Virus record (IMG/VR): IMGVR_UViG_3300037502_002077
Location: 1 to 41,911 of that record
Reading direction: 5' to 3' (one strand)
DNA length: 41,911 nucleotides
Origin: a virus
In this document: positions 6,402-41,911 of the stretch, piece by piece
Layout: each line of letters starts with the position of its first letter
How positions within the stretch are numbered: the first letter of the stretch is position 1
Program-made: the position numbers and the translations under genes
Notes under the pieces: model-generated
Databases searched by the model: none
What the model was told of the DNA's origin: nothing
Seen by the model: only the letters and a program-made list of their open reading frames with translations

Positions 6402-6459
6402 GGTTGGCTCCTGGTTAATGGCCCCAGCGTACCAAGGCAGAGGCCAGGGAGTTGCCGGC

Positions 6460-6759: not shown

Positions 6760-6879
6760 ATCGTCTACCTCAATGTCAGTCTATGGTTTTGCCCACCAGG
6801 GCGACCGCTGTCTCGCAATCCGTTAGGCGGGCAGTGTGGCAGCCGACCCGGAGCGACCAGCCTGGCGCGTGCCACGGGG

Positions 6880-11664: not shown

Positions 11665-12248
11665 TCAATGGGATCTTTAGCCGACTTCCGTAAGTTGCAC
11701 TCTACGCAAAGAATTTGCAGGTTTGTCGATTCGTTCGACCCTCCCCTTGAAAGAGGCACTATGTGATCAACGTGATATTTTTTGTTTGCCCCGCCGACCT
11801 TATCTTGACAACTTGCGCATCTGCCCCTTTGCATCCTAAGAGCCTTCTCTTCGCAAAAATCTAAACCAAGGCCATCGGTCCCGGCTTTCTGCGCCCGCCT
11901 CTTTCTTTCGTGCTTGCGCTTCACCTCCGGGTTCTCCTTGAAGTAATTTCTTGTTTTCTCTCTGAGTTGCTCAGAGTTTTTTTCATAGTAATCTCTTTGC
12001 CTAGACAAAACCCTTTCTCTGTTCCTTTGGTGATAATCCCTTAGCCTTGAAAGGTATTTCTCTCGGTTATTCTTTCTATATTTATCTAAATAAATGGCTT
12101 GGCAGTCGGTACACTTTCCGCAGCCGACGTATCTTTCTGCAATATGCCCGCGCAGGCACGGCTTTCCTGTAAAATACTTGGTCAGGCCAGCCTCTTTAGC
12201 ATCTTTTCGGGTGATAACTTTGGTGGTCATTCTGAATTCCTCAGTCAA
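11634..12248 (-). CDS. HNH endonuclease (homing-type), in a low-GC block
   Basis: 204 aa. C-terminal HNH core: YHVDHIVPLSRGGSNESTNLQILCVECNLRK. An N-terminal Cys cluster is present. Visibly AT-richer than its neighbours, and the 3' end overlaps the primase start by 31 nt. Confidence 0.88.
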   Translation of the reverse strand: MTEEFRMTTKVITRKDAKEAGLTKYFTGKPCLRGHIAERYVGCGKCTDCQAIYLDKYRKNNREKYLSRLRDYHQRNRERVLSRQRDYYEKNSEQLREKTRNYFKENPEVKRKHERKRRAQKAGTDGLGLDFCEEKALRMQRGRCASCQDKVGGANKKYHVDHIVPLSRGGSNESTNLQILCVECNLRKSAKDPIEWANENGRLL

Positions 12249-14359: not shown

Positions 14360-15226
14360 ATGATAGAAGTTATCGAATACACCCCCGGCATGACGATTGA
14401 GCCGCCGTGCTTTATCGAAGGCATGCCGAATGATGTTTATCACTCACACCCGGGAGGTGTTAGCTCGTCTGGCTTGAAGCTGGTAGAGCGAAGCCCCGCC
14501 CACTATCGCTACCAGGCGGCACGCGCCCCGTCCCGTGCAATGGAAATTGGCACAGCTATACACACAGCCTTGCTAGAGCCTGAGCGATTCGCGACCGACT
14601 ACGTTTTACTCAAAGACGTAAAAGACCGCCGCGCAAGTGAATACAAGGCAGCAACGAAAGTTCACGGCACCGAGTGCGTTCTGGTCGCCAGCGAGGCAGA
14701 TCAGGTGGCCGGCATGCAGGAAGCTGTACTGTCAAATCCGGCCATGTCTGAACGGCTAAACGCGGAAGGCTGGCGGGAGCTATCCTTGTTCGTGCGTGAC
14801 CCAGAAACCGGCGTGCTGATCCGGGTACGCTATGACCTGCTGACGGTCAGCGGCATTGCAGTGGATCTCAAGAGCTGCCAGGACGTTAGACCTGACGAGT
14901 TCAGTAAGTCGATATTCAACTACGGCTATGACCTGCAAGCGGCACTGTACGCAGACGCTTTTGAGTGGGCAACTGGCGCCCCCCTCGGCGCGTTTGAGTT
15001 TGCAGCTGTAGAGAAGGAAATGCCTCACGGGCACAAACTGTACCTGCCAGACGAAACCATGATGCAAGAAGGTCGCCGCCGCTACCGAGAAGCACTGAAC
15101 CTGTTTGCCGAGTGCGAGCGCTCCGGCGAGTGGCCCGGCATTACATGCGACGGCCCGGAGCTGATCAGCTTGCCAAGTTGGCGCGTTGCTCAGATTGAAA
15201 ACGAGATTGAACAGGAGATTTTTTGA
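14360..15226 (+). CDS. PD-(D/E)XK recombination exonuclease (exodeoxyribonuclease VIII / Cas4-like fold)
   Basis: 288 aa. Segments: YHSHPGGVSSSGLK, RVRYDLL...IAVDLKSCQD, YDLQAALY. Confidence 0.75.
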   Translation: MIEVIEYTPGMTIEPPCFIEGMPNDVYHSHPGGVSSSGLKLVERSPAHYRYQAARAPSRAMEIGTAIHTALLEPERFATDYVLLKDVKDRRASEYKAATKVHGTECVLVASEADQVAGMQEAVLSNPAMSERLNAEGWRELSLFVRDPETGVLIRVRYDLLTVSGIAVDLKSCQDVRPDEFSKSIFNYGYDLQAALYADAFEWATGAPLGAFEFAAVEKEMPHGHKLYLPDETMMQEGRRRYREALNLFAECERSGEWPGITCDGPELISLPSWRVAQIENEIEQEIF

Positions 15227-15735
15227 TGAAGCCTGCACCGCTGCCTAGCGCAGAGAGACTAAGCCAGCTTTTTGTTCTCGATAGCAAAAGAGGCGTTTTG
15301 TTGCATAGAAAAAAGTGCGGCATAAAGTCTGGCAGCATTGCAGGTAATGTTATGCCGCAAGGGTATAGACGCGTGAAAGTTGACGGAAAGCTGTACCTGT
15401 CGCACAGGCTTATTTACGCAATGGCCTATGGAGATTGCCCTCAGCATATGGAAGTTGATCACATAAACGGCAACAAGTCAGACAGCAGGCCGGAAAATTT
15501 GAGGCTTGCGACTAGAAGCCAGAACAGGCACAACGTCGACACTTACGCGAATAACAGCACAAATAAAAAAGGAACTTGGTACGACAAACGAAGAAAAGCG
15601 TTTTTCTGCGCAGTTCAGTGTAACGGCCTCAGAGAGCAATTTGGGCCTTTTGAAACCCTTCTGGAAGCAAGCAATACCTATTGCAGAGAGGCGAAAGAAA
15701 GGTTCGGCAATTTTTACAGGAGTGAATCCGTATGA
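15226..15735 (+). CDS. HNH homing endonuclease with an AP2-like DNA-binding domain
   Basis: SHRLIYAMAYG...EVDHINGNKSDSRPENLRLATRSQNRHN, followed by GTWYDKRRKAFFCAVQCNGLREQFGPFETLLEASNTY. Lower GC than its neighbours. TGATG and ATGA overlaps with the flanking genes. Confidence 0.85.
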   Translation: MKPAPLPSAERLSQLFVLDSKRGVLLHRKKCGIKSGSIAGNVMPQGYRRVKVDGKLYLSHRLIYAMAYGDCPQHMEVDHINGNKSDSRPENLRLATRSQNRHNVDTYANNSTNKKGTWYDKRRKAFFCAVQCNGLREQFGPFETLLEASNTYCREAKERFGNFYRSESV

Positions 15736-18256: not shown

Positions 18257-18404
18257 ACTTCAGCGCCTCCCGGTAAATCTTCGTCAGCGCCGTCTCATAT
18301 TCCACGGCCTTTTCTTGCCATTCGACGGCTTGCTGGGTCAGGTCTCTGACCATGGATTTCAGTTCGTACACTTCGGCTCTTAGTTGGCGTTCGGTTTGGG
18401 TCAT
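18246..18404 (-). CDS. small coiled-coil protein (52 aa), absent from the ORF track
   Basis: Own translation: MTQTERQLRAEVYELKSMVRDLTQQAVEWQEKAVEYETALTKIYREALKYAK. ATGA overlap with the methyltransferase stop. Confidence 0.45.
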   Translation of the reverse strand: MTQTERQLRAEVYELKSMVRDLTQQAVEWQEKAVEYETALTKIYREALKYAK

Positions 18405-19978
18405 TTTTCAGCCCTCATGATAACAACATCGACAGATGCCCCGCGGAACTGGTTTTCGTAGACCTTCGACCATGTGAGGCTCATCCCAGGGAGCACATCT
18501 TTGCCTTTGGCGCCGGCTGGAAGAATCGCCACCAGAACGCCATCGGGGCGAAGCATGGTTGCCGCGTGCTCGATGTGGGCTTGCCAGCGGCCCTGGCTGT
18601 ACGGCGGGTTCATCAAGATGCGGTCAAACTTTAGGTTTGGCAGGCTGCCCGACCATTGCAGAAAGTCTGCCTGGATGACCTCGTGACCTTTCTCGCGCAA
18701 CACAGCACAGTGCAGCGGGCTGACCTCCACACAATGCAAGGGCGCGTCTATAAGGTCGGCAATGCTGCCTGTTCCGGCGCTTGGCTCCAGGCAGTTGTGT
18801 GCGGGGCGGATCTCCGCCAGCTCCACCGCATCCCGGGCAATATGCTCAGGTGTCGGATAGAACTGGTGGCTTTTCTGGTCAGGGATAACGCCGGTGCACA
18901 CAATCTCCTTGATGACCGGGTCCGGGTCGTAGTCGAACCGATACCAGTTGTATGCGCTGGTGTTCTGCTTCACGCCACCGAGTAGCCCCAGCACCTGCTC
19001 AACCTCGGCGATTACATGCTTGTCCTTTTCGTGGGATTCGATGCGGACGGCGTTCGGAATCAATCGGCGGCTGCGCTCTGCCGTGTCATAGGCCCGGCCA
19101 AGGCGGTGAAGTACGTCCAGCACCGCGAACGGTAACGGTCTTTCCATCAAGGTAAATTCTTTTACCTTGCGCTTTGGCTTCTGCCGGAACCGTGACGGAA
19201 TGGCCGTCGGGTACAAGTGGTGCACGATCTCGTTCAAGCGCCACGCCATATCCGGGTGTACTTCCAGGTGGGCATTACCGTTCATGTAGCACCGAATCCG
19301 GAGAGCCCCGCCATCTACTGGTACCCACTCGCCTCGATGATTGGCCCGGCAAATCTCGACCATCCGATTGCTGGCGTTCCAGTCCGGCTCGTCCCGCCCC
19401 ATCAGCTTGGCGATAACTTGCCGCAGGTCGTTAATGTGGCCGGTCTGGCTCCGGGAATAGCTGCCCCAGTCATTGGTCACACCGGTCAGGATCATCCGCT
19501 TGCCGAAGCCTTCCGGTTGATTGGTAACGTGTGTCTTGCTCAGAGCCCGGAAAATGCCGTCTACCTTCTCGGCCAGAAAGTCCATGCGGGCAGCTAGTAA
19601 TTCGCGCAAGGTGGCCCGTACCGTGGACTCCTCAAAATCCGGCGTTTCCATTTTCTGGATCTGCTCGAACCATTCTTCCCGGCGCTTGCTGGGCATAAAG
19701 TCCAACACATCCGTAAGGTTCAGTGCTTGCTGCCAATAATGGGCATTCAGTGCGGCTATGCCCTGACCCAGATCAAAGCTAGGAGTTGAGCCTGCCCGAT
19801 GATCCCTGCGCCTGGCAGCATCCTCAAAGTACCCGACAACGCTTTTGAAGTCGTCGCCGGACACATAATCAACTACGCGCTCCATGCGATCACGCTCGGA
19901 GCGATAGCGCCCAACTAGGCCATCTACCATGTCTGTGCTGGCAGGCGCGAAAAACTGAGATTCGGCCAGGGCATTCAC
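18401..19978 (-). CDS. DNA methyltransferase: DUF4942-like N-terminal region plus a class I SAM-dependent N6-adenine (NPPY) methyltransferase domain
   Basis: 525 aa with a GTG start. SAM motif LEPSAGTGSI and catalytic motif LMNPPYS. No adjacent restriction endonuclease. Confidence 0.8.
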   Translation of the reverse strand: MNALAESQFFAPASTDMVDGLVGRYRSERDRMERVVDYVSGDDFKSVVGYFEDAARRRDHRAGSTPSFDLGQGIAALNAHYWQQALNLTDVLDFMPSKRREEWFEQIQKMETPDFEESTVRATLRELLAARMDFLAEKVDGIFRALSKTHVTNQPEGFGKRMILTGVTNDWGSYSRSQTGHINDLRQVIAKLMGRDEPDWNASNRMVEICRANHRGEWVPVDGGALRIRCYMNGNAHLEVHPDMAWRLNEIVHHLYPTAIPSRFRQKPKRKVKEFTLMERPLPFAVLDVLHRLGRAYDTAERSRRLIPNAVRIESHEKDKHVIAEVEQVLGLLGGVKQNTSAYNWYRFDYDPDPVIKEIVCTGVIPDQKSHQFYPTPEHIARDAVELAEIRPAHNCLEPSAGTGSIADLIDAPLHCVEVSPLHCAVLREKGHEVIQADFLQWSGSLPNLKFDRILMNPPYSQGRWQAHIEHAATMLRPDGVLVAILPAGAKGKDVLPGMSLTWSKVYENQFRGASVDVVIMRAEK

Positions 19979-24166: not shown

Positions 24167-26179
24167 CTATAGATCAATATTGTTAAGATCAATATCCTCA
24201 ATACTGTAATTTGGCGGAGTAACGATTCTTACAACTTCGTTATCTGAATAACCAAAAGCCCTTATAATCATTTTTCCACCGTGCGAGGATATAGCTTCTG
24301 CTACCCCCGAATTGCTCGGATAAGAGGTATGGTAATCGTAATCCGATAGCGGTATCTTTACTCCTGACGTGTTTCCATTGAATTTTATCTGTCCAAATAT
24401 TTCTTGCGTCTGTCCTGTGGCGTTAATTGACACGCTACCTCTTTCAATTATTGCAACCATTGGACATTGTGCAGAAGAATATCCAGACCCCGGCGTGTCA
24501 ACCGTTATATCTACGATCTTTCCGCCCTCTATTACAGGAGTCAACGTGGCACCTGATCCAGAAGTCGATGATATCTCTGCTGTTGCTGAAGTGTACCCTA
24601 TTCCGGGATGTTCTACATAACACCCAACAATTTCTCCGGCTTTATTAACAGTAACCGTTGCTCTTGCTGGATACGTACTGCTGCCACTGATAGTCACGCG
24701 AGGATAAGATGAGTGGTTCGTTGAAGTGCCTACAAATCCGACACTGTTTATAACCACACCGCTTGCGTTGTGTATTTCAAATAAAGCACCTGCAAGGTCT
24801 TTATCTGGGTTTGCGTTAGTAGGCCCGCTGAGCGACCCTCCGTTAAAAACAACCCCTTTAACACCGCCTGCTAAAGGGTTATCTTTGTTACCCAGCACCA
24901 CCGGCTTGACTACGTTTTCCGTATACAGCGAGTTAAATGTCAGCGTGCCGACTAGAACGGAATCTTTATAATAAACACCAATCTTCCCGCCCTGGGCAGT
25001 AAAGTTTGTAAAAGTAGTGCCGTGGGAATTTCCATCTATGTATAGGTTAGCATCGCAAGAATTAGAAGTATAAATGTTATCAAAATGGCAAGCGTTGACT
25101 TCGTCTCCGATCTTGAAGCAATATCCGGAAATGTTTGTTCCGTTCGTTCTTATGTTTCTGAATGTTCCGGGGTAGCAATTATCAAACAACGCTCCGTGTG
25201 TAAATGTGCCAGAAAATCTAACAGAATCAATAAATGGCTCGCCACACAACCTTGCCTCCATGCCTAGGTAGCACCCATTAGCTCCACGGATGGAAATGCT
25301 TTCAATCCTGTTGTTTGTTGAAAACCCTGATTGAGCCCCTACGCGCAAGACTGGCCCAGAAGCAATGGCGTCCCCAAAAATAATTGAGTCTTTGCCATCT
25401 CCCAGAATGCAACCACCGGAATTTGTATACAAAGTTGATGTTATACGATACTCGCCGGACGGGAGATACAGAAGTTTGAACGAATCTATTACGCCTTGTA
25501 GGATCGCCGTATTGTCAAACGCCCCGTCTCCCTTTGCTCCGAACCATAGGGCGTTTACATAGCCCGAGTAAGATCGGACCCACGCACCAGATGCGCCTGT
25601 TGGATCGCTGGCCGGAGGCACAAACAAGCCGCTTTTTGGGTCACTTGATACTTTCGCGGAAAGGTCTGAGCTATCCCACAGAAACTCTCCCTCGCCGCCA
25701 TCACCAGTAGTTGTACGGCCCGTCATGTAGGCAACATCGCCAGCAAAGCGCCCCGACACGGATTTCAGTGCCTGTAAATTGCTAACCCTGCGGACACCTT
25801 GTCCTAACTCCTGCCTCAGCACCGCATCCCCAGCCGCCACAAACGCCCCGCCCTCCGGCAGCCCCGCGCCAGTGGTCGTATACGGCAATTCAGTGGAGCC
25901 GGACACGCGCCAGAACTCACCGGAGCTATCGCGCACAACTTGGTTGTACTGCGTGACCTCGATGCCGGCAGCGTAGTCGCCTGCGAATTGGTAGCCACTG
26001 GCGGCAATGAAGGCGGCAAACTCGTCTTCAATGCTCTGCCAGCTGCGCCGCGATTTTCCCAGCCGGTCGTTATACGCCGCCTGATCGCCGTTAACGAGGT
26101 TATCCAGGTTCTCCGCGTTGTCGTAAAGATCACGCGGATCGGTAGAACCAAGCGGGTTCCCGGTGCTGTATGTGGTCAT
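24167..26179 (-). CDS. tailspike / tail fiber with a pectate-lyase-like beta-helix (putative depolymerase)
   Basis: 670 aa. Conserved N-terminal anchor: NPLGSTDPRDLYDNAENLDNLVNG. Beta-helix entry motif: NALWFGAKGDGAFDNTAILQGVI. The C-terminal two-thirds is visibly AT-rich. Confidence 0.85.
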   Translation of the reverse strand: MTTYSTGNPLGSTDPRDLYDNAENLDNLVNGDQAAYNDRLGKSRRSWQSIEDEFAAFIAASGYQFAGDYAAGIEVTQYNQVVRDSSGEFWRVSGSTELPYTTTGAGLPEGGAFVAAGDAVLRQELGQGVRRVSNLQALKSVSGRFAGDVAYMTGRTTTGDGGEGEFLWDSSDLSAKVSSDPKSGLFVPPASDPTGASGAWVRSYSGYVNALWFGAKGDGAFDNTAILQGVIDSFKLLYLPSGEYRITSTLYTNSGGCILGDGKDSIIFGDAIASGPVLRVGAQSGFSTNNRIESISIRGANGCYLGMEARLCGEPFIDSVRFSGTFTHGALFDNCYPGTFRNIRTNGTNISGYCFKIGDEVNACHFDNIYTSNSCDANLYIDGNSHGTTFTNFTAQGGKIGVYYKDSVLVGTLTFNSLYTENVVKPVVLGNKDNPLAGGVKGVVFNGGSLSGPTNANPDKDLAGALFEIHNASGVVINSVGFVGTSTNHSSYPRVTISGSSTYPARATVTVNKAGEIVGCYVEHPGIGYTSATAEISSTSGSGATLTPVIEGGKIVDITVDTPGSGYSSAQCPMVAIIERGSVSINATGQTQEIFGQIKFNGNTSGVKIPLSDYDYHTSYPSNSGVAEAISSHGGKMIIRAFGYSDNEVVRIVTPPNYSIEDIDLNNIDL

Positions 26180-32354: not shown

Positions 32355-32991
32355 TACTTCCAAACCTCCATAGCTGACTCCAAGCTAACCGGCGGCTCGT
32401 TGATGTGTGGTGCAAAGTCGTAGAGCTTCATACCGCCTCGCTTGCTATGGCTGTTGGCGTACAGGCTGGCTAACAGTGCGCCGGCCCATTCCGTGCGGAG
32501 TCCGGGGTTTAAGCTGCCCCGCTGGTTGCGATACCTGAGCCATGCGCAGAACTCTTGATAAGATAGCCGTTCCTTGGCTTCTGCAATCGTCCGGCCACCG
32601 ATTCCGCACAGTACCAGCTCATGCCAGACTTCTTCCTCTAGGCTCAGGTCTTCTTCTTTTTTTCCGAAAAGCCGTTCACCTCACCGATCACCCGGAGCAG
32701 TTCCAGCGTCAGATCCCGGCACAGCGGGCCGCGATCGGGGTCTGCTTCGCCGGTTACGTCCGCCACCGTGAACACGGGCTTGCCGGTCTCATCCACGATA
32801 GATGAGGCAATCCGGCCCGCGATAGCGTCCTTGCTGGTGATGTCCGACACGGCGGCGGCGTAGGAGAGTTTGCGGACAAAGACGGTAGCGGTGTTCTCGC
32901 TGCCGCCGCTTGTCCAGGTGATCTCCTTCTCCACCGGGGCGCCTGCGAACGCGCCTTGTTTGGTCAGGCTTTCAAGGCTTAGTGTGGTCAT
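32354..32991 (-). CDS. tail assembly chaperone G-T fusion produced by a -1 programmed frameshift
   Basis: After GGAAAAAAAG, the -1 frame stays open for about 100 codons ([42 protein letters not shown]...ESAMEVWK*). It ends in a TAATG overlap with the tape measure start. The +1 frame stops quickly. Confidence 0.8.
32644..32991 (-). CDS. tail assembly chaperone (gpG-like)
   Basis: 115 aa. Lies between the tail tube and tape measure genes and ends at the slippery A-run. Confidence 0.85.
32656..32663 (-). promoter_or_regulatory. slippery sequence A AAA AAG (A7 run) for the G/G-T -1 frameshift
   Basis: Seven consecutive T on the plus strand at 32657-32663. The position is canonical, near the end of gpG. 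Confidence 0.8.
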
Positions 32992-33473
32992 ACGACAACC
33001 TTCGGAATCCAGCTAGAGCCGCCAGAGCGCTGAATGGATACCTCGCTGGTCACTACCGTGTTCTGCGCAAAGTCGAACGGGAAGTCTGACACATAGCCTT
33101 CGAACACAAACCATGTGCGGGTGGTCGGCAGGTCGAAATCACCGGAGCTATCCAGAGTCGGGGCGTCGGTGCCGTCTGACCAGCCCACTGCCCATTTCAC
33201 GATGGGGCTGGGGTCAGTCTCTGCCAGTTCGTGCAACTTCAGGTGACTGGCGTTCTCCGGGTCGGAGTTCAGGCCGAGCGTTGCCGTTCCGGGGGTGCGT
33301 AGGCCGGGGCGGTAGCTGCGGTCGGTGTCTTCGAGACAGGTATCTTCAATCTGATCAGCGGGATTGCCGCCGGGGCTGAAGGTGGTGGCGCATTCTACTC
33401 GGGCGACCGCAGGGCCGCCGGAAGCGGTCGGGTCGATGAAAAATACGTGGGTGCCTTGTGCGAGCTTGCTCAC
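32988..33473 (-). CDS. major tail (tube) protein
   Basis: Directly precedes G/G-T/TMP. The preferred start is the GTG at 33473, with GGAGG 9 nt upstream. The alternative ATG at 33506 adds 11 residues. Confidence 0.75.
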
Positions 33474-33551
33474 GATAAAATTCCTCCGTAACGGAAATAA
33501 CGTCATCACGACGTGTTATTGCATGCTATCACAGTATAACCGATACGGGGA

Positions 33552-33584
33552 TGGAAGCAAAAGAAAGCCCTCACGGGGAGGGCT
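33552..33584 (-). terminator. rho-independent terminator closing the cargo cassette
   Basis: On the minus strand, AGCCCTC-cccgt-GAGGGCT is followed by TTCTTTTGCTT. The stem includes the stop codon of the 49-aa gene. Confidence 0.7.
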
Positions 33585-33720
33585 TGGTGGATATCCTTAC
33601 GGCTTCTCTAATCCCCGCGCTCGCGTTGCCCTTGCCCAGCTTGCGGAGCGCTTCGTGGTCTTCTTCCGTGACGGTGTAGGTGCGTTTTTTGGTGTTGGTG
33701 GCGTAGGGGCGTTTAGTCAT
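33571..33720 (-). CDS. small ribbon-helix-helix-like protein (49 aa)
   Basis: Start refined to MTKRPYATNTKKRTYTVTEEDHEALRKLGKGNASAGIREAVR, which shows a basic N terminus followed by a beta-strand and two helices. 8-nt overlap with the IbrB-like gene. Confidence 0.5.
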   Translation of the reverse strand: MTKRPYATNTKKRTYTVTEEDHEALRKLGKGNASAGIREAVRISTKPSP

Positions 33721-34222
33721 TGTCTGGCTCCCATGCTTCGCTAAACTCTTCATCTTTAAAAAGTTCTGCCAAGCCGCTGATTTGTTTCAGCCTCAAAACT
33801 TCGTCTGCATCCATTCCAAGCTCTTTTGATATTTTTTCAGCCGACCAGTTTCTCCTTGATAGTTCAACTACTATCTCGCTCATGCTGTCTATTCGGTGCT
33901 TGCCTCTGGCCCTGTTATGCCTGATCGTAGATGCGATCCGATCGTTTCTGTCTTGCGATTCGGGGTTTACTACAACAACAGGCAAGTGAGTCAAGCCCAT
34001 TTCTTTGCCAACCAGGTGTCGGTGAAACCCATCAACGACTTCATAAATTCCGTCGTGTTTCCATGTCACAATTGGCTGAGTGTAACCGTCAGCCTCAATG
34101 CTTCGCCTCAAAAGCTCCATTTCGGGCTTTGCCACTGAGTTAGGGTTGTAGTCATTCGCAACCACCAATTCCGATTCAACCCACACTACATTGCTTACAG
34201 GGTGGCGATTTATCCAGTTCAT
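33713..34222 (-). CDS. ParB-like nuclease-domain protein (IbrB-like / DndB-like DGxHR motif)
   Basis: 169 aa. Segments: NDYNPNSV, GYTQPIVT and EVVDGFHRH (ParB/Srx box). ATGA overlap with the IbrA-like gene. Confidence 0.75.
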   Translation of the reverse strand: MNWINRHPVSNVVWVESELVVANDYNPNSVAKPEMELLRRSIEADGYTQPIVTWKHDGIYEVVDGFHRHLVGKEMGLTHLPVVVVNPESQDRNDRIASTIRHNRARGKHRIDSMSEIVVELSRRNWSAEKISKELGMDADEVLRLKQISGLAELFKDEEFSEAWEPDND

Positions 34223-35415
34223 AAACCATACCTATGTTTTTTGAGCCTTAAATAAGCCTCGTACGCTCCCGTTTTGTGCTGTGTGAAGCTCAAGCCCTTG
34301 CACCAATAATCGTTCCTGAGAAGTGTTTTACATATCCTTCTCCAGCTTGGTATTTTTTTACTGTTTTCCAGCTTAGGGTCTGCTTCGTCAGGTATTCCTT
34401 TTGGATATTCTTCATTCCACCAATCAAGAAAAGTGTTTATTTTTATCTGATAGTGATCTCTTGTTGCTTTTGGCATTGAATTGAGAAGCATTTTTGCAAA
34501 GCTTTGCCACGTATGTCCTTCTGGCTTTTTGACCTTGATCGTTCCGTTTATGTTTCCGGAGTCCTTTGCGTACAGCGCTCCGCTATTTGCCCCGTTTACC
34601 CTTGCGACGACTTTTGCCCAGGTCTCCGGCTCGATGATCTGGTAAAGCCACAATCCTTTTCTCTGATCATCTCCGTAAGGTTGGCAGATTCTCTGCTGAT
34701 GGATTGATAGCCCAGCCTGGTTCATTAGGTCGTATAGCCTGTTGTACGGCAACGCTGTCTTTGCGTGATAAATCCATATGTCTCGCGTGCGCCAATCGTA
34801 TATCGGATAAACATTAACGCACGTTCCGGATTTCCACGTTGTCCAAGGGTGTCCCTCAAATCGGCTGTATTGATTATTCGCTATCGCCCTGTACCTGTTA
34901 AGGCTTTCGTCGGTTCTTATGCCAACAAGCGTGGCCATAAGGTCTCCACCGGCCAGCCATTCTGAGTACTTGTCGACAAAATCTTCAAACTCCATGCCCT
35001 TACTGAACCAATGCGGGGCGTCATTTTCTGTTATTGCCTTGCCAGGCATATCTCTGACCCATCGGTCCTTTTGGTTTTGGTCCCAGCAAATCCATTGTGG
35101 CTCGTAAGCGCTGACTGCGTTTCTTAGGCTTAGTGGTAAACAGATCCAGTGAAATTCACAGCAGTCACTGTACTGCCGACGCAGACTCTCGATATGATCA
35201 ATTGTCAGCCTGTACTGCGCCTCCAAATCCACAACCATAACAATGATGCTGCGCCCATGAGCCCTTGCCGCCTCGGCTGCCAAATGGAGCATCACAGTTG
35301 AGTCCTTGCCGCCAGAAACCGACACCATTACCTTCGGAAAGTTTTTCATTACATAAGATATTCTAAACCTTGCTGCATCAAGCACATTTACGCCGATTGG
35401 GTTTTTTGAAGCCAT
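34219..35415 (-). CDS. PAPS-reductase-family PP-loop ATP pyrophosphatase with a DUF3440-like C-terminal region (IbrA-like)
   Basis: 398 aa. PP-loop VSVSGGKDSTVML. GIRTDESLNRY. The long C-terminal extension is typical of IbrA. AGGAGG lies 8 nt before the ATG. Confidence 0.8.
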   Translation of the reverse strand: MASKNPIGVNVLDAARFRISYVMKNFPKVMVSVSGGKDSTVMLHLAAEAARAHGRSIIVMVVDLEAQYRLTIDHIESLRRQYSDCCEFHWICLPLSLRNAVSAYEPQWICWDQNQKDRWVRDMPGKAITENDAPHWFSKGMEFEDFVDKYSEWLAGGDLMATLVGIRTDESLNRYRAIANNQYSRFEGHPWTTWKSGTCVNVYPIYDWRTRDIWIYHAKTALPYNRLYDLMNQAGLSIHQQRICQPYGDDQRKGLWLYQIIEPETWAKVVARVNGANSGALYAKDSGNINGTIKVKKPEGHTWQSFAKMLLNSMPKATRDHYQIKINTFLDWWNEEYPKGIPDEADPKLENSKKIPSWRRICKTLLRNDYWCKGLSFTQHKTGAYEAYLRLKKHRYGL

Positions 35416-35786
35416 TCCACGGCCTCCTGTTTTGTTAGCTTTGTCATTTCTCCATTATCAAAAACAAAAAAGAACCTTTCAGATGATCGCCAGCTAGTTC
35501 TCCTTTTAACCTCATAAAGTACACCCGAATCAACCACGAATCTTAGATAGATCCCACGGTTGCCACTTCCGCTGCTCTTTGCCAAATCTTTTTTTCCATG
35601 CAAAAACTCCCTGACAAAACCATACTTCTTCGAAAGGCCGATTATTTTTGCCACCCATGGTTTTGTTGATGGCATGCTTAGATACTGCCCAGTTCCTGGA
35701 ATAAGATAATCCGAGATGGAAGACCAAAGTTTGTTCTCCTGCTCGTTGGTCTGCCCTATGCACTCGCAAACAACAACATGCTTCAT
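35388..35786 (-). CDS. hypothetical protein (132 aa), cargo cassette gene 2
   Basis: ORF track. ATGA overlap upstream and a 28-nt overlap downstream. Low GC. Confidence 0.6.
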   Translation of the reverse strand: MKHVVVCECIGQTNEQENKLWSSISDYLIPGTGQYLSMPSTKPWVAKIIGLSKKYGFVREFLHGKKDLAKSSGSGNRGIYLRFVVDSGVLYEVKRRTSWRSSERFFFVFDNGEMTKLTKQEAVEWLQKTQSA

Positions 35787-36031
35787 ACGATAGTTGCCTC
35801 AATACCGTATTTTGAAACGTATTCATCCTTTTCTTTCTGCTCAGCAACGTTAACAAACGCAAGCCGCAAACTTTCTCTTTTTTGAGCAACAAATTGATCC
35901 TTTGCTTCTTCGCGTGTTTCTGGAACATCGTTGAAGAAACTTTCGGCCCGAGCAACGAAGCTGCTAAGCGGACGGTTGATAGCTTCATCAAGCTCAATTT
36001 GCGCTTTTTTGATATCGTTGATTGTATACAT
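35783..36031 (-). CDS. hypothetical protein (82 aa), cargo cassette gene 1
   Basis: ORF track. GGAGAG precedes the ATG. First gene after the promoter at 36071-36098. Confidence 0.6.
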   Translation of the reverse strand: MYTINDIKKAQIELDEAINRPLSSFVARAESFFNDVPETREEAKDQFVAQKRESLRLAFVNVAEQKEKDEYVSKYGIEATIV

Positions 36032-36581: not shown

Positions 36582-37075
36582 TTTGCCGCCTTCTTCTTGG
36601 CGCGCCTTAGAGCTCGGTCCAATGCACGTGAATACTCGTTGATAAACGTATCAACCGCTTGCTGCCCTGCCTGATCCACCGCCGGGCGCATGAATGGCTG
36701 TGCGGCATGATTGGAGTTGCCGAACTCCTGTTGCCGGAAGGCTTGCCGAGTATCGCCGCCGGGCAGCCCAGAAAAGGCGCTGGCGGGCTTGTTACCACCG
36801 GCCCCGCCCATGACACCAATGCGGAAGCCGAGTCGCCCGGTACGCTTAAACAGCCTGCCATTCCAGCGCTCGACAATGTTTTTCTCGATACTCTCGGCAG
36901 TCTTCGGGTCGTCAATCTTGGCCGCATTGGCCTTGGCTTGATCGCGTATCACCTGAGCAGCGCGCCGCAACGCAAACCGCCCGCCCTTGTACTTGATATC
37001 ATCGGTCACGGTGTCCAGCTTGCCGAGCAGTTCGGGCAAGCCTTCCATGGTGTAGGTGATGCCGTCAGTTGCCAT
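36578..37075 (-). CDS. HK97 gp10-family head-tail joining protein
   Basis: Start refined to MATDGITYTMEGLPELLGKL. QEFGNSNHAAQPFMRPA is the family signature. Confidence 0.8.
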   Translation of the reverse strand: MATDGITYTMEGLPELLGKLDTVTDDIKYKGGRFALRRAAQVIRDQAKANAAKIDDPKTAESIEKNIVERWNGRLFKRTGRLGFRIGVMGGAGGNKPASAFSGLPGGDTRQAFRQQEFGNSNHAAQPFMRPAVDQAGQQAVDTFINEYSRALDRALRRAKKKAAK

Positions 37076-37670
37076 AATCCGGAACCCAATCAGCCTTAAC
37101 GTCTTGCGGTCTGGGCTTGCCGTGGAAGCACACAACTGCTGCATCCTCCGGCAATCCATGCTTACAGTGTACCTTATAGCTTACCACCTTGCCCGGCGCT
37201 ATGTCTTGCCAGCGTTGCGGCTCCCAGCAATCCGCGAAAAACGCCTGATCGCCGATGCGGCCACGAGTCGCGGGGCGCTTCATATACGCCTCTGGGTTCG
37301 TGATCCACCTATCCCATACAGCGGCCTTGTCGGCCTGGGAGATGTGCATAAACCCGCTGGCGGGATGCTCCGGCCAGTAGAAGTCGGAAAGCATGGTGGT
37401 TTTGCCGTTGGCCGCCTTGATCAGCGGGGCAAGGTCGCCGGGTACTACGGTGTCCAGGTCCAAGTACAGCAGGTCGCCTTTAATGTCAGGGCGGCACAGT
37501 TCTATTTTAGACCACCATCCGGGCCAGTTTTGGGTTAGCGGGATGGTTTCGACTCCGGGCACGGCGGTATCGGACAGGCACACAAGGCCCGGCACCTGGC
37601 TGGCCAGTACCTGAACATGGCGTGGGGTGAAGTCGCCGCCGGAGCGGAGGACGCAGATTATCTTGACCAT
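37065..37670 (-). CDS. putative glycosyltransferase (GT-A-like, DxD motif)
   Basis: Begins MVKIICVLRSGGDF and carries LLYLDLDTVVPGD (DxD). It resembles the small glycosyltransferases found in phage structural operons. Confidence 0.6.
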   Translation of the reverse strand: MVKIICVLRSGGDFTPRHVQVLASQVPGLVCLSDTAVPGVETIPLTQNWPGWWSKIELCRPDIKGDLLYLDLDTVVPGDLAPLIKAANGKTTMLSDFYWPEHPASGFMHISQADKAAVWDRWITNPEAYMKRPATRGRIGDQAFFADCWEPQRWQDIAPGKVVSYKVHCKHGLPEDAAVVCFHGKPRPQDVKADWVPDYGN

Positions 37671-38266
37671 ATCACGTTCCACTCATCTGCCGGGGCCGGG
37701 GCGTACCCCAGTGGTTTCAGGATAGCCGCCTGATCCTGCAAAGCCACATCGGTCAGGGCTTCGGTTATAATCAGCGGGGAGCACCTGCGGATGGTGGCTA
37801 GGGCGCCACGTAGAACAGCACACTCGTGCCCCTCTACGTCGATCTTAATGGCGGTTACGTTGCCGAAGTCGAATCCGTCAACCGTTGCCAGCACTGTGTC
37901 GGTGCCTTCGGTGATCTTGCCGCCACTGGTTAGCCGGGTTGATTTGCTCAGGGCCATGGATGCGCGGCCTTCATGGTCAGACAGTGCGATGAGGTAGGGC
38001 GCGACGGGCAGTTGGTTGACCTCGATGTTCTGTTGCAACCGCTCATATACTGCGGGGTTCGGCTCAAACGCATACGCATCAGCCCCGGCCTTAGCCGCCA
38101 CAAGCGCATACAGGCCCGTATACGCGCCAATGTCCAGCGCCGTGCCGTGGGTGCAGGCTGCCTGCCAAGCGGCGATAGACTCAGCTTCAAACGGCTTGCC
38201 GGTCTGCTTTTGGTGGCGAATGACCATATCGCCATCTGGGTTTAGGTGGATGCCGTGGATTATCAT
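37658..38266 (-). CDS. FkbM-family SAM-dependent methyltransferase
   Basis: 202 aa. Segments: ALDIGAYTGLYAL, AFEPNP, ALSDHEG, IKIDVEGHECAVLRG. Confidence 0.8.
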   Translation of the reverse strand: MIIHGIHLNPDGDMVIRHQKQTGKPFEAESIAAWQAACTHGTALDIGAYTGLYALVAAKAGADAYAFEPNPAVYERLQQNIEVNQLPVAPYLIALSDHEGRASMALSKSTRLTSGGKITEGTDTVLATVDGFDFGNVTAIKIDVEGHECAVLRGALATIRRCSPLIITEALTDVALQDQAAILKPLGYAPAPADEWNVIWSR

Positions 38267-38276
38267 TAGAGGTTCC

Positions 38277-38301
38277 TTAAAAAGCCCTCGCGGGGAGGGC
38301 T
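38277..38301 (-). terminator. rho-independent terminator between the 111-aa gene and the FkbM gene
   Basis: On the minus strand, AGCCCTC-cccgc-GAGGGCT is followed by TTTTTAAGG. The stem is identical to the terminator stems at 33566-33584 and 16808-16825. Confidence 0.65.
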
Positions 38302-38308
38302 GTTGGGG

Positions 38309-38644
38309 TTATTTTTCGATGGCTTCGATCAACTCCCTCTCTATTCTCTTTTCAGTGTTAACCTTGAGCCACTGACGGAGAACCTCATGGGCGTATTCGT
38401 TCGCCTTTGTGCCTGCATTGCCTATGATATCAAGAATGAACTTTCCGTCGTCACTGTATTGAACAACAACGGCAGCCCTGTGGTCAGACCTTTGCTCCAA
38501 AGCCCACTGCATAAGTCTGGTGGCGTATTGGGTATCGGTCATCTTCATCATGGCCGCATCTTCAGCGCGGGCCTTTGCGTCCTCAAACTCAAGAATGGTT
38601 GACGCGGGCAGTGTTACCCTGATTTGTTTTCTTGCTTCGCTCAT
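38309..38644 (-). CDS. hypothetical protein (111 aa) with an RHH-like N terminus
   Basis: KQIRVTLPASTILEFEDAKARAE. ATGA overlap with the upstream gene. Lower GC. Confidence 0.55.
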   Translation of the reverse strand: MSEARKQIRVTLPASTILEFEDAKARAEDAAMMKMTDTQYATRLMQWALEQRSDHRAAVVVQYSDDGKFILDIIGNAGTKANEYAHEVLRQWLKVNTEKRIERELIEAIEK

Positions 38645-38949
38645 CGCGCCAAGTCCTCATTAAATATCTCAATGCAGTCACTCTCTGTTAGGTCGAACCT
38701 GTCACCCGGAATTTCATAAGCTCCAGATGGAAGCTTTAGTCCATAAAGCTCAGGCAAAATGTCTTCGGCGATTACAGGGATTGCCATAGACCTTCCTTCC
38801 AGTGCATCCGTTTCGCTGTCCGTATACACGCTCCAAGCTACCACCATAGATTCATGTAGGCTGTCACATTTTCCATCTGTCCCGATAATTGGAGTCACAA
38901 CAAAAAAGCCCGGCGAAGCCGCTATTACTTGAACTAATCCTCGTCCCAT
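38641..38949 (-). CDS. hypothetical protein (102 aa)
   Basis: Start refined to MGRGLVQVIAASPGFFVV, with GAGGA 7 nt upstream. The ORF-track start at 38997 lacks an SD. Confidence 0.55.
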   Translation of the reverse strand: MGRGLVQVIAASPGFFVVTPIIGTDGKCDSLHESMVVAWSVYTDSETDALEGRSMAIPVIAEDILPELYGLKLPSGAYEIPGDRFDLTESDCIEIFNEDLAR

Positions 38950-39026
38950 GTTAAATCCTCTAATCAGTAATTGGTTAAGCGTCTCTCCCAACGCCATTAC
39001 AGATTAGACTCTAAAGGCCGCATTTG

Positions 39027-39605
39027 TCAACAAGTGTGGCCTTTATTTTTAAGTGTGCCCTCAAGATCAACCACCGCCCAAAAATCCAAAGCCGTCCGCC
39101 TTGTCGCATTCACGATTTCAACGCCGCCATAGTGCCTCGCCGCTTCCTGAAACTGCCCGTAGAACTTTGGCATAGACACGCAGTTACCCAGGCCCGCTAT
39201 GTGGTCGCCGTGCCAATGCCGCTTACCGTCCGCCGCATACTGGCAGTCGTAGCCGAGCAGTATCACGCGGGACGCACCTCGTGTGACAGCTAGGGTGATC
39301 GCGCCTACGCCGGAGTTGCCAGAAGGGTGTACGTCTTGCCGGGTGGCTATCGGCGCGTTGTGCCCTCTGGTAATCTTCTCGCCTTTGAAGTATCGCGCAT
39401 CTTGCCCGTATCGCCGCCACCATGCCGAGTCCATGGCATAGAGAGTGTCCGCCCACGGGCACAGCTCATAGGTGTTATTGGTGACGATCACGCGCCGGTC
39501 ATTGCCAGACACGCGCCACTGGCGGACACGTTCAACGTCTTCTCGGGTAAGCGAGGGGCCGGAAGCGATGCAGACAACCGTAAAATCAGCCCACGGTTTC
39601 GCCAT
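39027..39605 (-). CDS. DUF115/MptE-like (Maf- or sialyltransferase-like) putative glycosyltransferase
   Basis: 192 aa. Segments: VVCIASGPSL..., VTNN...ADTLYAMD and HPSGNSGVGAITLAVTRGASRVILLGYD. This is the pattern of the GPSL/SG Rossmann-like family that contains flagellin-glycosylating Maf proteins. Confidence 0.45.
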   Translation of the reverse strand: MAKPWADFTVVCIASGPSLTREDVERVRQWRVSGNDRRVIVTNNTYELCPWADTLYAMDSAWWRRYGQDARYFKGEKITRGHNAPIATRQDVHPSGNSGVGAITLAVTRGASRVILLGYDCQYAADGKRHWHGDHIAGLGNCVSMPKFYGQFQEAARHYGGVEIVNATRRTALDFWAVVDLEGTLKNKGHTC

Positions 39606-39963: not shown

Positions 39964-40294
39964 GGAGCGGGTACAAAAGACTGATCACAGTCTGTGGCAA
40001 ATACCCAAAACCCCACTGTGCATCAACCTTGCCATCTTGCTCCGCCTCCCGGTGCTTGTACCACTCCGCCACCAGAATCAGCGTTGCAACCTTCACTTGC
40101 CACGGCACGCCCTCGGGGTTTCCGGAGCTGTCCACCGGCACCTCGCCGGAGCTATTCAGAAAGGTTGCGCCGGATTTCAGGTATTCCACCACAGCGGCGG
40201 ATGCGCCTTGGATCAGAAGCTCGATATACGGATCATCCTGGTCGTGATCCATCATCAGCTGATACTTGGCTTCGGTTAGGGTGACAAGTTTCAT
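39944..40294 (-). CDS. gp6-like head-tail connector protein
   Basis: 116 aa. VTLTEAKYQLMMDHDQDDPYIELLIQGASAAVVEYL. Confidence 0.85.
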   Translation of the reverse strand: MKLVTLTEAKYQLMMDHDQDDPYIELLIQGASAAVVEYLKSGATFLNSSGEVPVDSSGNPEGVPWQVKVATLILVAEWYKHREAEQDGKVDAQWGFGYLPQTVISLLYPLRDPAMA

Positions 40295-40620
40295 TGTGCG
40301 TCCCTCCCGCGCTTAACCGCCAGTCGCCATCCGTCGCCGTCTCCCGGCTTGTGGTCTGGGCTGTCTTTCTGTGCGATCCACAGGGAGCCGCCAGAGCTAA
40401 CCGCGTCGCCCCGGTCGTAGTTCTTTTCGGCGTCGTACACGCCACGGTCAATGATCACCGGCAACGTGAACACCTGCTGAGACTCGCCAGACTTCACGGT
40501 AAAGCTACGCTCTCCATCATAGGCGAACTCCACCTGCCGGGACTCCAGCGCCTTCAGCCGTGGCTCAAACCGCTCGGCAATGAACTTGCCTACAAGCCGG
40601 AGCATGTCTTTATTCATCAT
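40291..40620 (-). CDS. hypothetical head-module protein (109 aa); possible decoration or accessory protein
   Basis: ORF track. It lies between the portal and connector genes, and the C terminus is GSLWIAQKDSPDHKPGDGDGWRLAVKRG. Confidence 0.6.
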   Translation of the reverse strand: MMNKDMLRLVGKFIAERFEPRLKALESRQVEFAYDGERSFTVKSGESQQVFTLPVIIDRGVYDAEKNYDRGDAVSSGGSLWIAQKDSPDHKPGDGDGWRLAVKRGRDAQ

Positions 40621-41911
40621 CCGCTCCTTCTGCCATGGCGGCCAGTGCTTCGTCGTCGTCCATCGGTTCAGGCTCGTCAGCTACCGGCTCCGCGTTATCA
40701 CGGCGGCTCAGTGCGGCCAAGCTGTAATTCTGCTGCTGCATGTACGGCGTATCACCGCCCGGCACAGGTGGCAGGTTACGGCGACGGCGCGCCTCGTCGG
40801 GTGCCAGGTAGCCCGCGCCCATTTCAGCGGCGGCAACCTCGGCTTGCGTCTTGGTGTCCATCCGTAGCAGGCTATCCAGATCAAGCTCCACGGTCAGGCG
40901 GTCAGGCAGGCCAAGCCCCTCATCCAGCACCGTCTCAAACTGCTCGATGTGGCTTTGCAGGCACTGCGCGTAATATTGCAGGTTCAGCGCCTGAATGTTG
41001 TTGTAGTTCGGCTCCTGCCCGGCAATCGCCATGTGGCTCGGGACGTGGAACACAGAACACACGGTTTCGGCGCTCATCTTGAGCTGTTCGACCATCTGGG
41101 CGTCGTGGGCGGTCATCACCATAGGCTCATACTTGAGCCCATCGCCTACCACCGCCACCTTGCCGGCATTGTCTCCGGTGTAGTTGGCGTCCCACTGCTG
41201 CTTAAGTCTTGCCGCTGTTTCGTCTGAGATTGCGCCGGGGGCGGACAGTACGCCGCCAGGGCGTGAGCCGTTGGCAAAGAACTTTCGGCTGTTTTGCTGG
41301 ATCTCCAGCCCCATACCGGCAGACAGGCTGCAAGCATACAGCGGGCTGATGCCGATGAGCGGATGGAACAGACAGTTGATGCGGTCGTGGATCACCTCGG
41401 ATGCCGGGACGGTTACAACCTCTTCCTGCTGCTTGCTGATCGCGTCCTTCTTCAGCTCGTAGAACACTTCGCCAGAATCCGACACCAGGATCTTAACGCG
41501 GCTGTAGTCAAGAATATACAGCGCCGTGATCATGCCGCGATTGTCCCGAACCTTGAGCGCAACGGTATTGCCCCGCGTCAGTTTCGAGATCATCCACGTT
41601 TCTTTGAATTGGATATGGTTCTGGTAGTGGTTCGGCTTTTTCAGGACGCGGGCGTACGGGCTGTTATCAACGGGTACTTTGATGCCATCTTGATAGGCCA
41701 TGAGGCGCGGACGTAACTTGCCCACGTCGTTTGAAATCAGGGTGATGCAGGAGAACACAGCAAAAAACGCCAGTTGTTCGCCGGCGGTCAGTTCTTTGTT
41801 TTGCTGCCACGCTCCGGGGTAAGGATCGCGCACAACCGGCCACCAGCCAGACGAGCCCGCCTCCTGTAGTGCCTTGGTGCGGCGCTTGATCTCTAGCCCA
41901 AAGAGCTTCAT
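40610..41911 (-). CDS. portal protein, HK97 family
   Basis: 433 aa. FANGSRPGGVLSAPGAISDETAARLKQQWDANYTGDNAGKVAVVGDGLKYEP...DAQMVEQLK. The ATG is at 41911, equivalent to position 127 in the duplicated end. Confidence 0.9.
   Translation of the reverse strand: MKLFGLEIKRRTKALQEAGSSGWWPVVRDPYPGAWQQNKELTAGEQLAFFAVFSCITLISNDVGKLRPRLMAYQDGIKVPVDNSPYARVLKKPNHYQNHIQFKETWMISKLTRGNTVALKVRDNRGMITALYILDYSRVKILVSDSGEVFYELKKDAISKQQEEVVTVPASEVIHDRINCLFHPLIGISPLYACSLSAGMGLEIQQNSRKFFANGSRPGGVLSAPGAISDETAARLKQQWDANYTGDNAGKVAVVGDGLKYEPMVMTAHDAQMVEQLKMSAETVCSVFHVPSHMAIAGQEPNYNNIQALNLQYYAQCLQSHIEQFETVLDEGLGLPDRLTVELDLDSLLRMDTKTQAEVAAAEMGAGYLAPDEARRRRNLPPVPGGDTPYMQQQNYSLAALSRRDNAEPVADEPEPMDDDEALAAMAEGADDE
41785..41911. 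repeat. Terminal overlap, right copy (identical to 1-127)
   Basis: Direct comparison of the two ends. Confidence 0.95.

Follow-up and report, generated by a model that had tools for sequence, protein, structure and literature searches.

The stretch of DNA analysed here, IMG/VR virus record IMGVR_UViG_3300037502_002077 (positions 1 to 41,911; hereafter the window), is a complete siphophage genome from a circular assembly, and its minus strand carries every late gene. Between the genes for the head closure protein Hc1 and an HK97 gp10-like neck protein lie three enzyme genes, which encode, in this order, a 192-amino acid (aa) protein of predicted MptE-like/DUF115 fold, an FkbM-family methyltransferase and a GT8-like glycosyltransferase. 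Gene arrangement and composition support the view that they are long-term residents of the late structural operon. We tentatively propose that their products form a soluble, cytoplasmic three-enzyme module that builds a glycan, and that its acceptor is one or more of the phage's own virion structural proteins, a reading that we favour while rating it somewhat short of probable.

Enzyme genes within the late structural operon

The locus and its two flanking genes comprise the following features:

39963-39586, minus strand: head closure protein Hc1, upstream flank (PF05521, 2.8e-26; PHROG 25)
39027..39605, minus strand: 192-aa protein of MptE-like/DUF115 fold (predicted fold; PHROG 4603, 1.2e-48)
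38641..38997, minus strand: 118-aa open reading frame (ORF), first gene of an insert (G+C content (GC) 0.46; GC at third codon positions (GC3) 0.42)
38309..38644, minus strand: 111-aa ORF, second gene of the insert (GC 0.49)
38277..38301 (hairpin 38283-38301), minus strand: terminator-like hairpin AGCCCTCCCCGCGAGGGCT then TTTTAA, closing the insert, as read from the sequence
37658..38266, minus strand: FkbM-family S-adenosylmethionine (SAM)-dependent methyltransferase, 202 aa (PF05050, TIGR01444, PHROG 8156)
37065..37682, minus strand: GT8-like (glycogenin-like) GT-A glycosyltransferase, 205 aa from GTG, 201 aa from the ATG at 37670
37159/37075-36578, minus strand: HK97 gp10-like neck protein, downstream flank (PF04883; PHROG 5)

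An earlier reading made without database searches (the sequence-only reading) had placed a candidate glycosylation locus at 37065-39605, interrupting the conserved run of connector, head closure, gp10-like and tail completion genes. Coordinates and family matches confirmed the interruption by three enzyme genes; the two low-GC ORFs of 118 and 111 aa and the hairpin, which lie in the same interval, had been overlooked. The start of the 192-aa gene overlaps the end of the head closure gene by 20 nucleotides (nt; 39586-39605), and the methyltransferase and glycosyltransferase genes overlap by 13 nt. The likely start of the gp10-like gene, at 37075 (MATDG, as used by the related locus L004), gives an 11-nt overlap with the end of the glycosyltransferase gene, and an upstream ATG gives 95 nt. 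Both overlaps that had been noticed at the ends of the locus are therefore real, the length of the second depending on the choice of start. In L004 and L005, whose glycosyltransferase is 93% identical, the genes for Hc1, the homologue of the 192-aa protein (a family that we refer to as ST-like), the methyltransferase, the glycosyltransferase and gp10 are contiguous, with overlaps of 20, 7, 13 and 11 nt, the last of these with a 163-aa gp10-like orthologue in L004. No GenBank phage matched the locus when DNA of near identity was searched for.

The enzyme genes have a GC of 0.585-0.594 and a GC3 of 0.66-0.71, as compared to 0.545-0.606 and 0.64-0.74 for the neighbouring structural genes; they are thus native in composition, and the earlier remark on their shared GC character is borne out by measurement. 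Promoter-like sites showed no excess in the locus (5 found versus 5.6 expected), and the enzyme genes have no promoter or terminator of their own. It is on the native GC, the overlapping start and stop codons and this lack of private signals that their long-term residency is argued. Being co-transcribed and translationally coupled with head-completion and neck genes, the enzymes would be made late, alongside the virion proteins.

The 118-aa and 111-aa ORFs are a later insert that lies outside the ancestral enzyme module, since L004 and L005, from which they are absent, are contiguous at this point, and another related locus, L006, carries other cargo there. In L006 the equivalent slot (6365-7374) is occupied by a gene for a 285-aa protein with a DGQHR (ParB/Srx-like) motif and by a 51-aa ORF (7219-7371), a segment of which is 58% identical to the N-terminal ~50 aa of the 111-aa protein. 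The L006 insert is closed by an equivalent hairpin, whose stem carries a compensatory change (CCCGC/GCGGG). The boundary of the ST-like gene with the methyltransferase gene is a hot spot for insertions. Neither small ORF has a family match in Pfam, PHROG or NCBIfam, and PADLOC gave no defence-system assignment.

A second low-GC block (0.41-0.46) lies at 33571-36031 and holds 82-aa and 132-aa ORFs, genes for a PAPS-reductase/DUF3440 protein and a ParB_N protein, and a 60-aa ORF. The PAPS-reductase/DUF3440 protein is DndC/BrxP-like in PADLOC and forms an IbrA/IbrB-like pair with the ParB_N protein. The block is closed by a hairpin (33585-33565) nearly identical to that at 38283-38301, and in L004 a gene for a 306-aa protein stands in its place.

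Composition and gene signals also bear on the possibility that the enzymes form a moron or lysogenic-conversion cassette, expressed from the prophage to alter the host serotype, whose place in a structural operon would be incidental. PHROG 1962, to which the glycosyltransferase belongs, is filed as 'moron, auxiliary metabolic gene and host takeover', many homologues reside in prophages, and phage phiNP has its copies at a typical moron site, flanked by lysis genes and terS. However, the hallmarks of a moron, namely atypical composition and an own promoter or terminator, are absent from the enzyme genes, which share GC and GC3 with the structural genes and overlap their neighbours, and were found only in the 118/111-aa insert. 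Indeed, the true inserts in the window (the 118/111-aa pair and the IbrAB-like block) are low in GC and end in hairpins, unlike the enzyme genes. In addition, members of the families are found in jumbo phages that are strictly lytic, which argues against a role confined to lysogens, and the copies in phage P1 stand behind a late promoter and C1 operators. We consider a lysogenic-conversion cassette very improbable.

Families and predicted folds of the three enzymes

The protein with a DxD motif, which the sequence-only reading had taken to be a glycosyltransferase, matches PHROG 1962 at 9.6e-63. No Pfam family, PF01501 included, matched it at E<=0.1, NCBIfam gave no match, and a single-sequence search against PDB sequences returned nothing significant. 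It carries DxD (D75-L-D77), GDQ and FHGxPRPW motifs; in its family FHGxPRPW is conserved, and D75, D77, D100, D118, G144 and D145 do not vary. A profile of 116 family sequences matches Skp1 alpha-GalT and glycogenin at ~4e-4, with DxD, GDQ and H..G..(K/R)PW aligned. An AlphaFold2 (AF2) model with a predicted local distance difference test (pLDDT) score of 95.8 gave 117 PDB matches at E<=1e-3 in Foldseek, including glycogenin-1 (1.2e-7, template modelling (TM) score 0.62), Skp1 alpha-GalT (6mw5), the GT8 structure 3tzt and GlyE. Profile and structure searches thus agree on a glycosyltransferase, with a predicted GT-A fold whose nearest counterparts are GT8 glycogenin, Skp1 alpha-galactosyltransferase and GlyE. 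We call it GT8-like, and not a GT8 member, because the curated family model (PF01501) was not reached.

The methyltransferase passed both curated cut-offs, with 57.3 bits for PF05050 (cut-off 22.7) and 85.3 bits for TIGR01444 (cut-off 37.7), in agreement with its earlier assignment to the FkbM family. Its SAM-binding DxGxxxG motif reads DIGAYTG. A single-sequence search against PDB sequences gave nothing significant. The motifs that had been quoted for the three proteins (ASGPSL, SGNSG...ILLGYD, DIGAYTG, IKIDVEGHE and YLDLDTVV) are all present in the translations, and no hydrophobic or membrane segment was found in any of the three enzymes.

The earlier description of the 192-aa protein as DUF115/Maf-like finds support in its predicted fold and in PHROG 4603, but not in its Pfam score: PF01973 reached 18.8 bits, below the cut-off of 34.6, and covered residues 91-124 only. 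Precomputed PF01973 matches exist for 6 of the 120 homologues listed. Family-invariant residues are D23, N43, D59, G99, D120, H130, N166 and R169. The AF2 model (pLDDT 94.5) matched the MptE 6-hydroxymethylpterin pyrophosphokinase (HPPK) structure 8sd5 (2.3e-4, TM 0.53), Maf (5mu5; 8.2e-4, TMq 0.62) and the GT29 enzyme ST6GALNAC2, as well as DUF115 models from phages and giant viruses (30 viral matches at E<=1e-3, several of them named MptE-like or DUF115). We are confident in predicting an MptE/Maf-like core fold from this model. Searches of PDB sequences with the single sequence and with the ST-family profile returned nothing significant.

PHROG and RefSeq label this family 'alpha-2,3-sialyltransferase' (GT42). 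We dropped the label because an hhalign comparison with Cst-II was not significant (probability 3%, E 0.015, 35 columns). The local alignment pairs NSG..LLGYD with TSG..LSGID, the Cst-II sequence having been checked against 1RO7, and Cst-II was absent from the top 50 Foldseek matches of the model.

The PF01973 family (MptE-like/DUF115, including Maf) covers both glycosyltransferase and pyrophosphokinase activities, which raises the possibility that the 192-aa protein is a (pyro)phosphokinase or other nucleotide-dependent enzyme, and that the module makes or modifies a small molecule or phospho-sugar and not a protein-linked glycan. The best Foldseek match, the archaeal MptE, is itself a pyrophosphokinase, and the failed comparison with Cst-II points the same way. 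Nevertheless, Maf aligns over more of the model than does MptE (TMq 0.62 versus 0.53) and a GT29 sialyltransferase also scores. Moreover, a true GT29 domain replaces the MptE-like partner in one fusion protein, every recurrent neighbour of the module is a sugar-handling enzyme, and the window has no pterin or folate genes. Such an activity is thus very improbable, and a role of the 192-aa protein in sugar transfer is retained in what follows.

Linkage, spread and proposed acceptor of the module

In a large protein database, clustered at 90% identity (E<=1e-5), the ST-like family comprises 1429 clusters and the glycosyltransferase family 871. The 80 viral contigs gathered with the glycosyltransferase profile include ~27 redundant, P1-like ones. 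In 64 of these 80 viral loci and in 27 of 51 genomic loci, the glycosyltransferase gene has an ST-like gene no more than 6 kb away or fused to it, and an FkbM methyltransferase gene stands directly upstream of the glycosyltransferase gene in 13 viral and 6 genomic loci. Nine viral loci (L020, L022, L026-29, L033, L034 and L045) encode single chains of 418-483 aa with an N-terminal GT8-like and a C-terminal MptE-like part. The C-terminal half of L045 matches the ST family directly (6e-33) and those of the others do so jointly (hhalign 97.7%, E 2.5e-12). Larger fusions occur in three verrucomicrobial genomic loci, which brings the fused pair to at least 12 loci. In other fusions the glycosyltransferase is joined with a true GT29 sialyltransferase domain (one locus, 4.7e-14), with both a polysaccharide pyruvyl transferase and an MptE-like domain, or with TPR repeats. 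Fusion together with co-occurrence shows that the two transferases are functionally linked and act together.

Where structural markers are recognisable, the module lies between the portal or capsid gene and the tail tube gene, on the same strand (24 loci with markers on both sides). Its slot differs among loci, being after the capsid gene, after Ad1, or before or after Hc1. The hosts of phages that carry it include gamma-, beta- and alphaproteobacteria, a Flavobacteriaceae metagenome-assembled genome and Verrucomicrobia. Among GenBank phages, tblastn searches with the glycosyltransferase found P1/P7 (PmgQ/HdmD), phiNP and jumbo Xanthomonas and Stenotrophomonas phages, and searches with the 192-aa protein found D3, PMG1, PAJU2, P1/P7 (PmgO/HdmB), Klebsiella and Serratia jumbo phages and giant Caulobacter and Brevundimonas phages. 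Between its capsid gene and Hc1, the 39-kb 'Tetraselmis viridis virus S20' (NC_020840; L142, 5564-11833) carries a larger glycosylation island of ten genes, which comprises two ST-like genes, one GT8-like and one FkbM-like gene, and additional genes for glycosyltransferases and methyltransferases (two of each in all). In the strictly lytic jumbo phage CcrColossus (L141, 6959-11512), a six-gene island directly after the tail genes includes an ST-like gene and genes for an NDP-sugar transferase, a methyltransferase and a GT9 enzyme.

In the mechanism that we propose, the GT8-like enzyme, as a retaining enzyme of DxD/Mn type, would transfer a hexose from a UDP-sugar, after which the MptE/Maf/sialyltransferase-like enzyme would add a second sugar. 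The latter could be, as a guess, an ulosonic or nonulosonic acid taken from a CMP-sugar, CMP-Kdo being a donor that every Gram-negative host supplies. The FkbM enzyme would then O-methylate the glycan. The acceptor may be a capsid, tube or neck/decoration protein, which would receive the glycan in the cytoplasm, either ahead of assembly or in its course.

A virion acceptor is favoured because the association of the module with head and neck genes holds across many host lineages, strictly lytic phages included, and because moron hallmarks are missing from the module and present in the adjacent true inserts. The nearest solved enzymes (glycogenin, Skp1 GalT, GlyE and Maf) also act on proteins, the substrate of Maf being a self-assembling structural protein that it glycosylates in the cytoplasm. 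Finally, there is a precedent in mycobacteriophages, whose own glycosyltransferases glycosylate the C-termini of capsid and tail-tube proteins (Freeman 2023, as described in PMC12619734 and PMC10877033).

Several observations weigh against a virion acceptor. Of the sequence-only interpretation, the enzyme identities and the late-operon residency stand, and the virion-protein acceptor is a proposal. A GT8 enzyme with a sialyltransferase-like enzyme is the pair that acts in lipooligosaccharide outer-core synthesis (LgtC with Cst or Lst). The head-neck junction is an insertion hot spot in any case, with two unrelated low-GC inserts there in the window, and the P1 and phiNP copies lie outside the head module. 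Capsid, tube, 109-aa and neck proteins have no Ser/Thr-rich C-terminal tails, which we used as a proxy for acceptors, though not a decisive one. In PAJU2, the ST-like protein ORF010 is annotated 'structural protein', a label that is not traceable to data. P1 does not need pmgO, pmgP and pmgQ to form plaques (PMC10695390), which fits an accessory role whether the acceptor is the virion or lipopolysaccharide (LPS). Lastly, homologues of the glycosyltransferase, 42-49% identical, adjoin waaL in bacterial waa clusters.

These waa-located homologues give real support to the alternative already raised in the sequence-only reading, modification of host surface glycans. The enzymes would act at the cytoplasmic face of the inner membrane and extend or cap the nascent LPS core, or another lipid-linked glycan, during infection; the receptor would thereby be altered, and progeny would not be lost on debris or vesicles, or superinfection would be blocked. 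In nine species-level genomes (from Klebsiella spp., Raoultella spp., Morganella, Erwinia, Pectobacterium and Martelella) the homologue is encoded directly upstream of waaL, among GT9 heptosyltransferase and GT4 genes. In a neighbour-joining (NJ) tree these proteins cluster with P1 PmgQ and phiNP, and the loci indicate exchange between phage modules and waa clusters. The receptor of P1 is the LPS core. Verrucomicrobial homologues are fused to polysaccharide pyruvyl transferase, the CcrColossus island includes a GT9 gene, and the tailspike encoded in the window has a pectate-lyase-like depolymerase domain, so that surface glycans must matter to the phage. The non-essential, accessory nature of P1 pmgO-Q (PMC10695390) is also compatible with this alternative.

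In contrast, the waa-located homologues lack the ST-like partner, and the window glycosyltransferase, whose gene lies in a phage neck operon and not in a waa cluster, falls in the other NJ branch with head-module and fusion proteins. Translational coupling to late structural genes and native GC would leave little time for LPS remodelling and offer no expression in a lysogen. The module also travels with head genes across hosts of widely differing LPS cores, and none of its three proteins has a membrane segment. Isoelectric point and net charge, which might have pointed to membrane association, overlapped in range between the glycosyltransferases of head modules and those of waa clusters and were thus uninformative. 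On balance we regard LPS or envelope glycan remodelling as a serious alternative that is nonetheless unlikely, and continue to prefer a virion acceptor.

Two observations stand beside these data. A 221-aa homologue is encoded directly upstream of waaL in L103 (7977-9872; Klebsiella sp. I138), and the same arrangement is seen in L104, L106-108, L133, L102, L101 and L127. Enterobacterial loci of the L124 type were considered as LPS clusters and rejected, their neighbours being large PHROG 7803 proteins.

The enzymes could also be thought to glycosylate and methylate the phage DNA, as a base hypermodification that evades restriction. Virus-encoded, DNA-hypermodifying glycosyltransferases are known (Pyle 2024, as cited in PMC12619734), and the window has genes of DNA-modification type, for a DUF4942 methyltransferase and for the DndC/BrxP-like PAPS reductase with ParB_N. 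However, no hydroxymethylase, dNMP kinase or base-exchange genes are present in the window, the enzyme genes lie in the virion-assembly operon, away from the replication genes, and the closest structures are those of enzymes with protein or glycan substrates, not DNA. P1 carries the module, and we know of no report that P1 DNA is glycosylated. DNA hypermodification is thus extremely improbable.

Returning to virion proteins as acceptors, the spread of the families allows a broader suggestion, which we put forward with more reserve. Gram-negative phages, P1 and D3 included, may possess a common, unrecognised virion O-glycosylation system, in which a glycogenin-like GT8 enzyme would act with a minimal Maf/sialyltransferase-like one, often as a single fused protein, and optionally with an O-methyltransferase, to build a short, capped, methylated glycan on capsid, tube or neck proteins from UDP-hexose and CMP-ulosonic acid supplied by the host. 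To our knowledge, mycobacteriophages are the only phages for which glycosylation of the virion by the phage's own enzymes is documented; there it protects the particles from antibodies. If virion proteins are indeed the acceptors, phages of Proteobacteria would commonly have virions coated with glycans (>800 and >1400 clusters of the two transferases at 90% identity), with consequences for the immunogenicity of therapeutic phages, environmental stability, adsorption and the interpretation of unexplained densities in cryo-electron microscopy. If the module instead remodels the LPS core late in infection, it would represent a new kind of receptor masking by genes of a structural operon. Either way, the 20-year-old 'putative morphogenetic' genes pmgO, pmgP and pmgQ of P1 gain a testable function.

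Genome layout and comparison with known systems

The first 127 nt of the window are identical to the last (1-127 and 41785-41911), so that the first 127 nt of the portal gene are found at both ends and the true genome measures 41,784 bp. The remaining features of the late region are:

3937-2435, minus strand: TerL
2375-1809, minus strand: prohead protease
1788-370, minus strand: major capsid protein, followed by a 68-aa ORF
41911-40610, minus strand: portal
40291-40620, minus strand: 109-aa ORF after the portal gene (C-terminal part of PHROG 1289 'portal protein', 6e-23; CBM_5_12 weakly)
40294-39944, minus strand: Ad1 connector (PF05135)
36581-36201, minus strand: tail terminator (PF11367)
36031-33571, minus strand: low-GC block between tail terminator and tail tube
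33509-32988, minus strand: tail tube

The order of the head genes (TerL, protease, major capsid protein, 68-aa ORF, portal, 109-aa ORF, connector) is unusual in that the capsid genes precede the portal gene. It is kept in L004-L006, L047/L048 and L118, and PAJU2 is similar, with a protease-capsid fusion before the portal. Homologues of the 109-aa protein, which could be a decoration or carbohydrate-binding protein, recur 3' of the portal gene in the module-bearing loci L007, L018, L031, L036, L047 and L048. The tail tube (32988-33509) resembles that of the Pseudomonas aeruginosa F-type pyocin (PDB 25vd/25vf, E 8e-60; PMC13455828). This pyocin, which lacks the module, gave the only match of the tube in a search for solved structures with possible glycan density, and the capsid protein had one weak match, 9d9w. 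A 670-aa tailspike with a pectate-lyase-like domain (PF12708) is encoded at 24167-26179, inside a stretch of 45-47% GC, which suggests a recently exchanged receptor-binding module with polysaccharide-depolymerase activity. A 525-aa DUF4942 protein whose C-terminal region resembles a type II methyltransferase (PADLOC mad2/MTase_II) is encoded at 18401-19978, and the replication/recombination region contains two HNH endonuclease genes (11634-12248 and 15223-15735).

Among known phages, P1 and P7 come close in sequence. The glycosyltransferase shares 41% identity with PmgQ and the 192-aa protein 34-35% with PmgO, and PmgP is a second, divergent MptE-like protein; the P7 counterparts are HdmB-D. 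The window locus shows the same PmgO/PmgQ-type pairing (PHROG 4603 with PHROG 1962) in a phage late operon, and the pmg genes, too, are under late control through their promoter and C1 operators. They differ in that the pmg operon, which includes a phosphatase gene (ppp), does not lie between head closure and gp10 genes, in that P1 has no FkbM methyltransferase, and in that PmgQ groups with waa-located glycosyltransferases in the NJ tree and not with the clade of the window enzyme.

D3 (orf7, orf12, orf13), PAJU2 (ORF010-012) and the Klebsiella jumbo phage Eowyn form a group with an ST-like gene in the head-neck operon. The 192-aa protein is 48% identical to D3 orf7 and 35% identical to PAJU2 ORF010. 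D3 has the order capsid, orf6.5, orf7 (ST-like), Ad1, Hc1, orf11, orf12, orf13 (methyltransferase), gp10, terminator, tube, and PAJU2 is similar. The head-neck operon of these phages, like that of the window, includes a methyltransferase gene, which in them directly precedes the gp10-like gene, and the PAJU2 capsid genes also precede the portal gene. The partner gene, however, encodes a PHROG 6804 protein of 275-296 aa with no similarity to the GT8-like family, and the methyltransferase is of Methyltransf_23 and not of FkbM type. Neither hhalign of the glycosyltransferase family against PAJU2 ORF011 nor BLASTP of the FkbM enzyme against the PAJU2 methyltransferase showed a relationship, and the D3/PAJU2 variant therefore uses non-orthologous partners. 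Searches of the literature on pmgO/pmgQ, on DUF115 with phage, on capsid glycosylation and on PAJU2 found no functional study of the module.

At the level of single enzymes, the phage glycosyltransferase has the GT-A fold and the DxD, GDQ and H..G..(K/R)PW motifs in common with GT8 enzymes (glycogenin, Skp1 alpha-GalT and GlyE; LgtC, WaaI/J). It differs from them in being ~60 residues shorter than the glycogenin catalytic domain, in having no PF01501 match, and in its frequent fusion or pairing with an MptE-like domain, a trait that described GT8 enzymes do not show. The 192-aa protein, in turn, has the MptE-like core fold of Maf (5mu5), but Maf comprises ~630 aa with extra substrate-binding domains, whereas the phage protein is the bare core.

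The mycobacteriophages Che8, Corndog and Myrna, as far as PMC12619734 and PMC10877033 describe them, decorate capsid and tail-tube subunits by means of phage glycosyltransferases and, in some, methyltransferases, as we propose here. That system has been shown experimentally, and only in actinobacteriophages. The gene families themselves are already catalogued, as PHROGs 4603, 1962 and 8156 and under RefSeq names. What is new with respect to mycobacteriophage glycosylation, gtr-type serotype conversion and DNA glucosylation is the different enzyme set and genomic setting, and the trait that characterizes the module is the pairing or fusion of its GT8-like and MptE-like enzymes.

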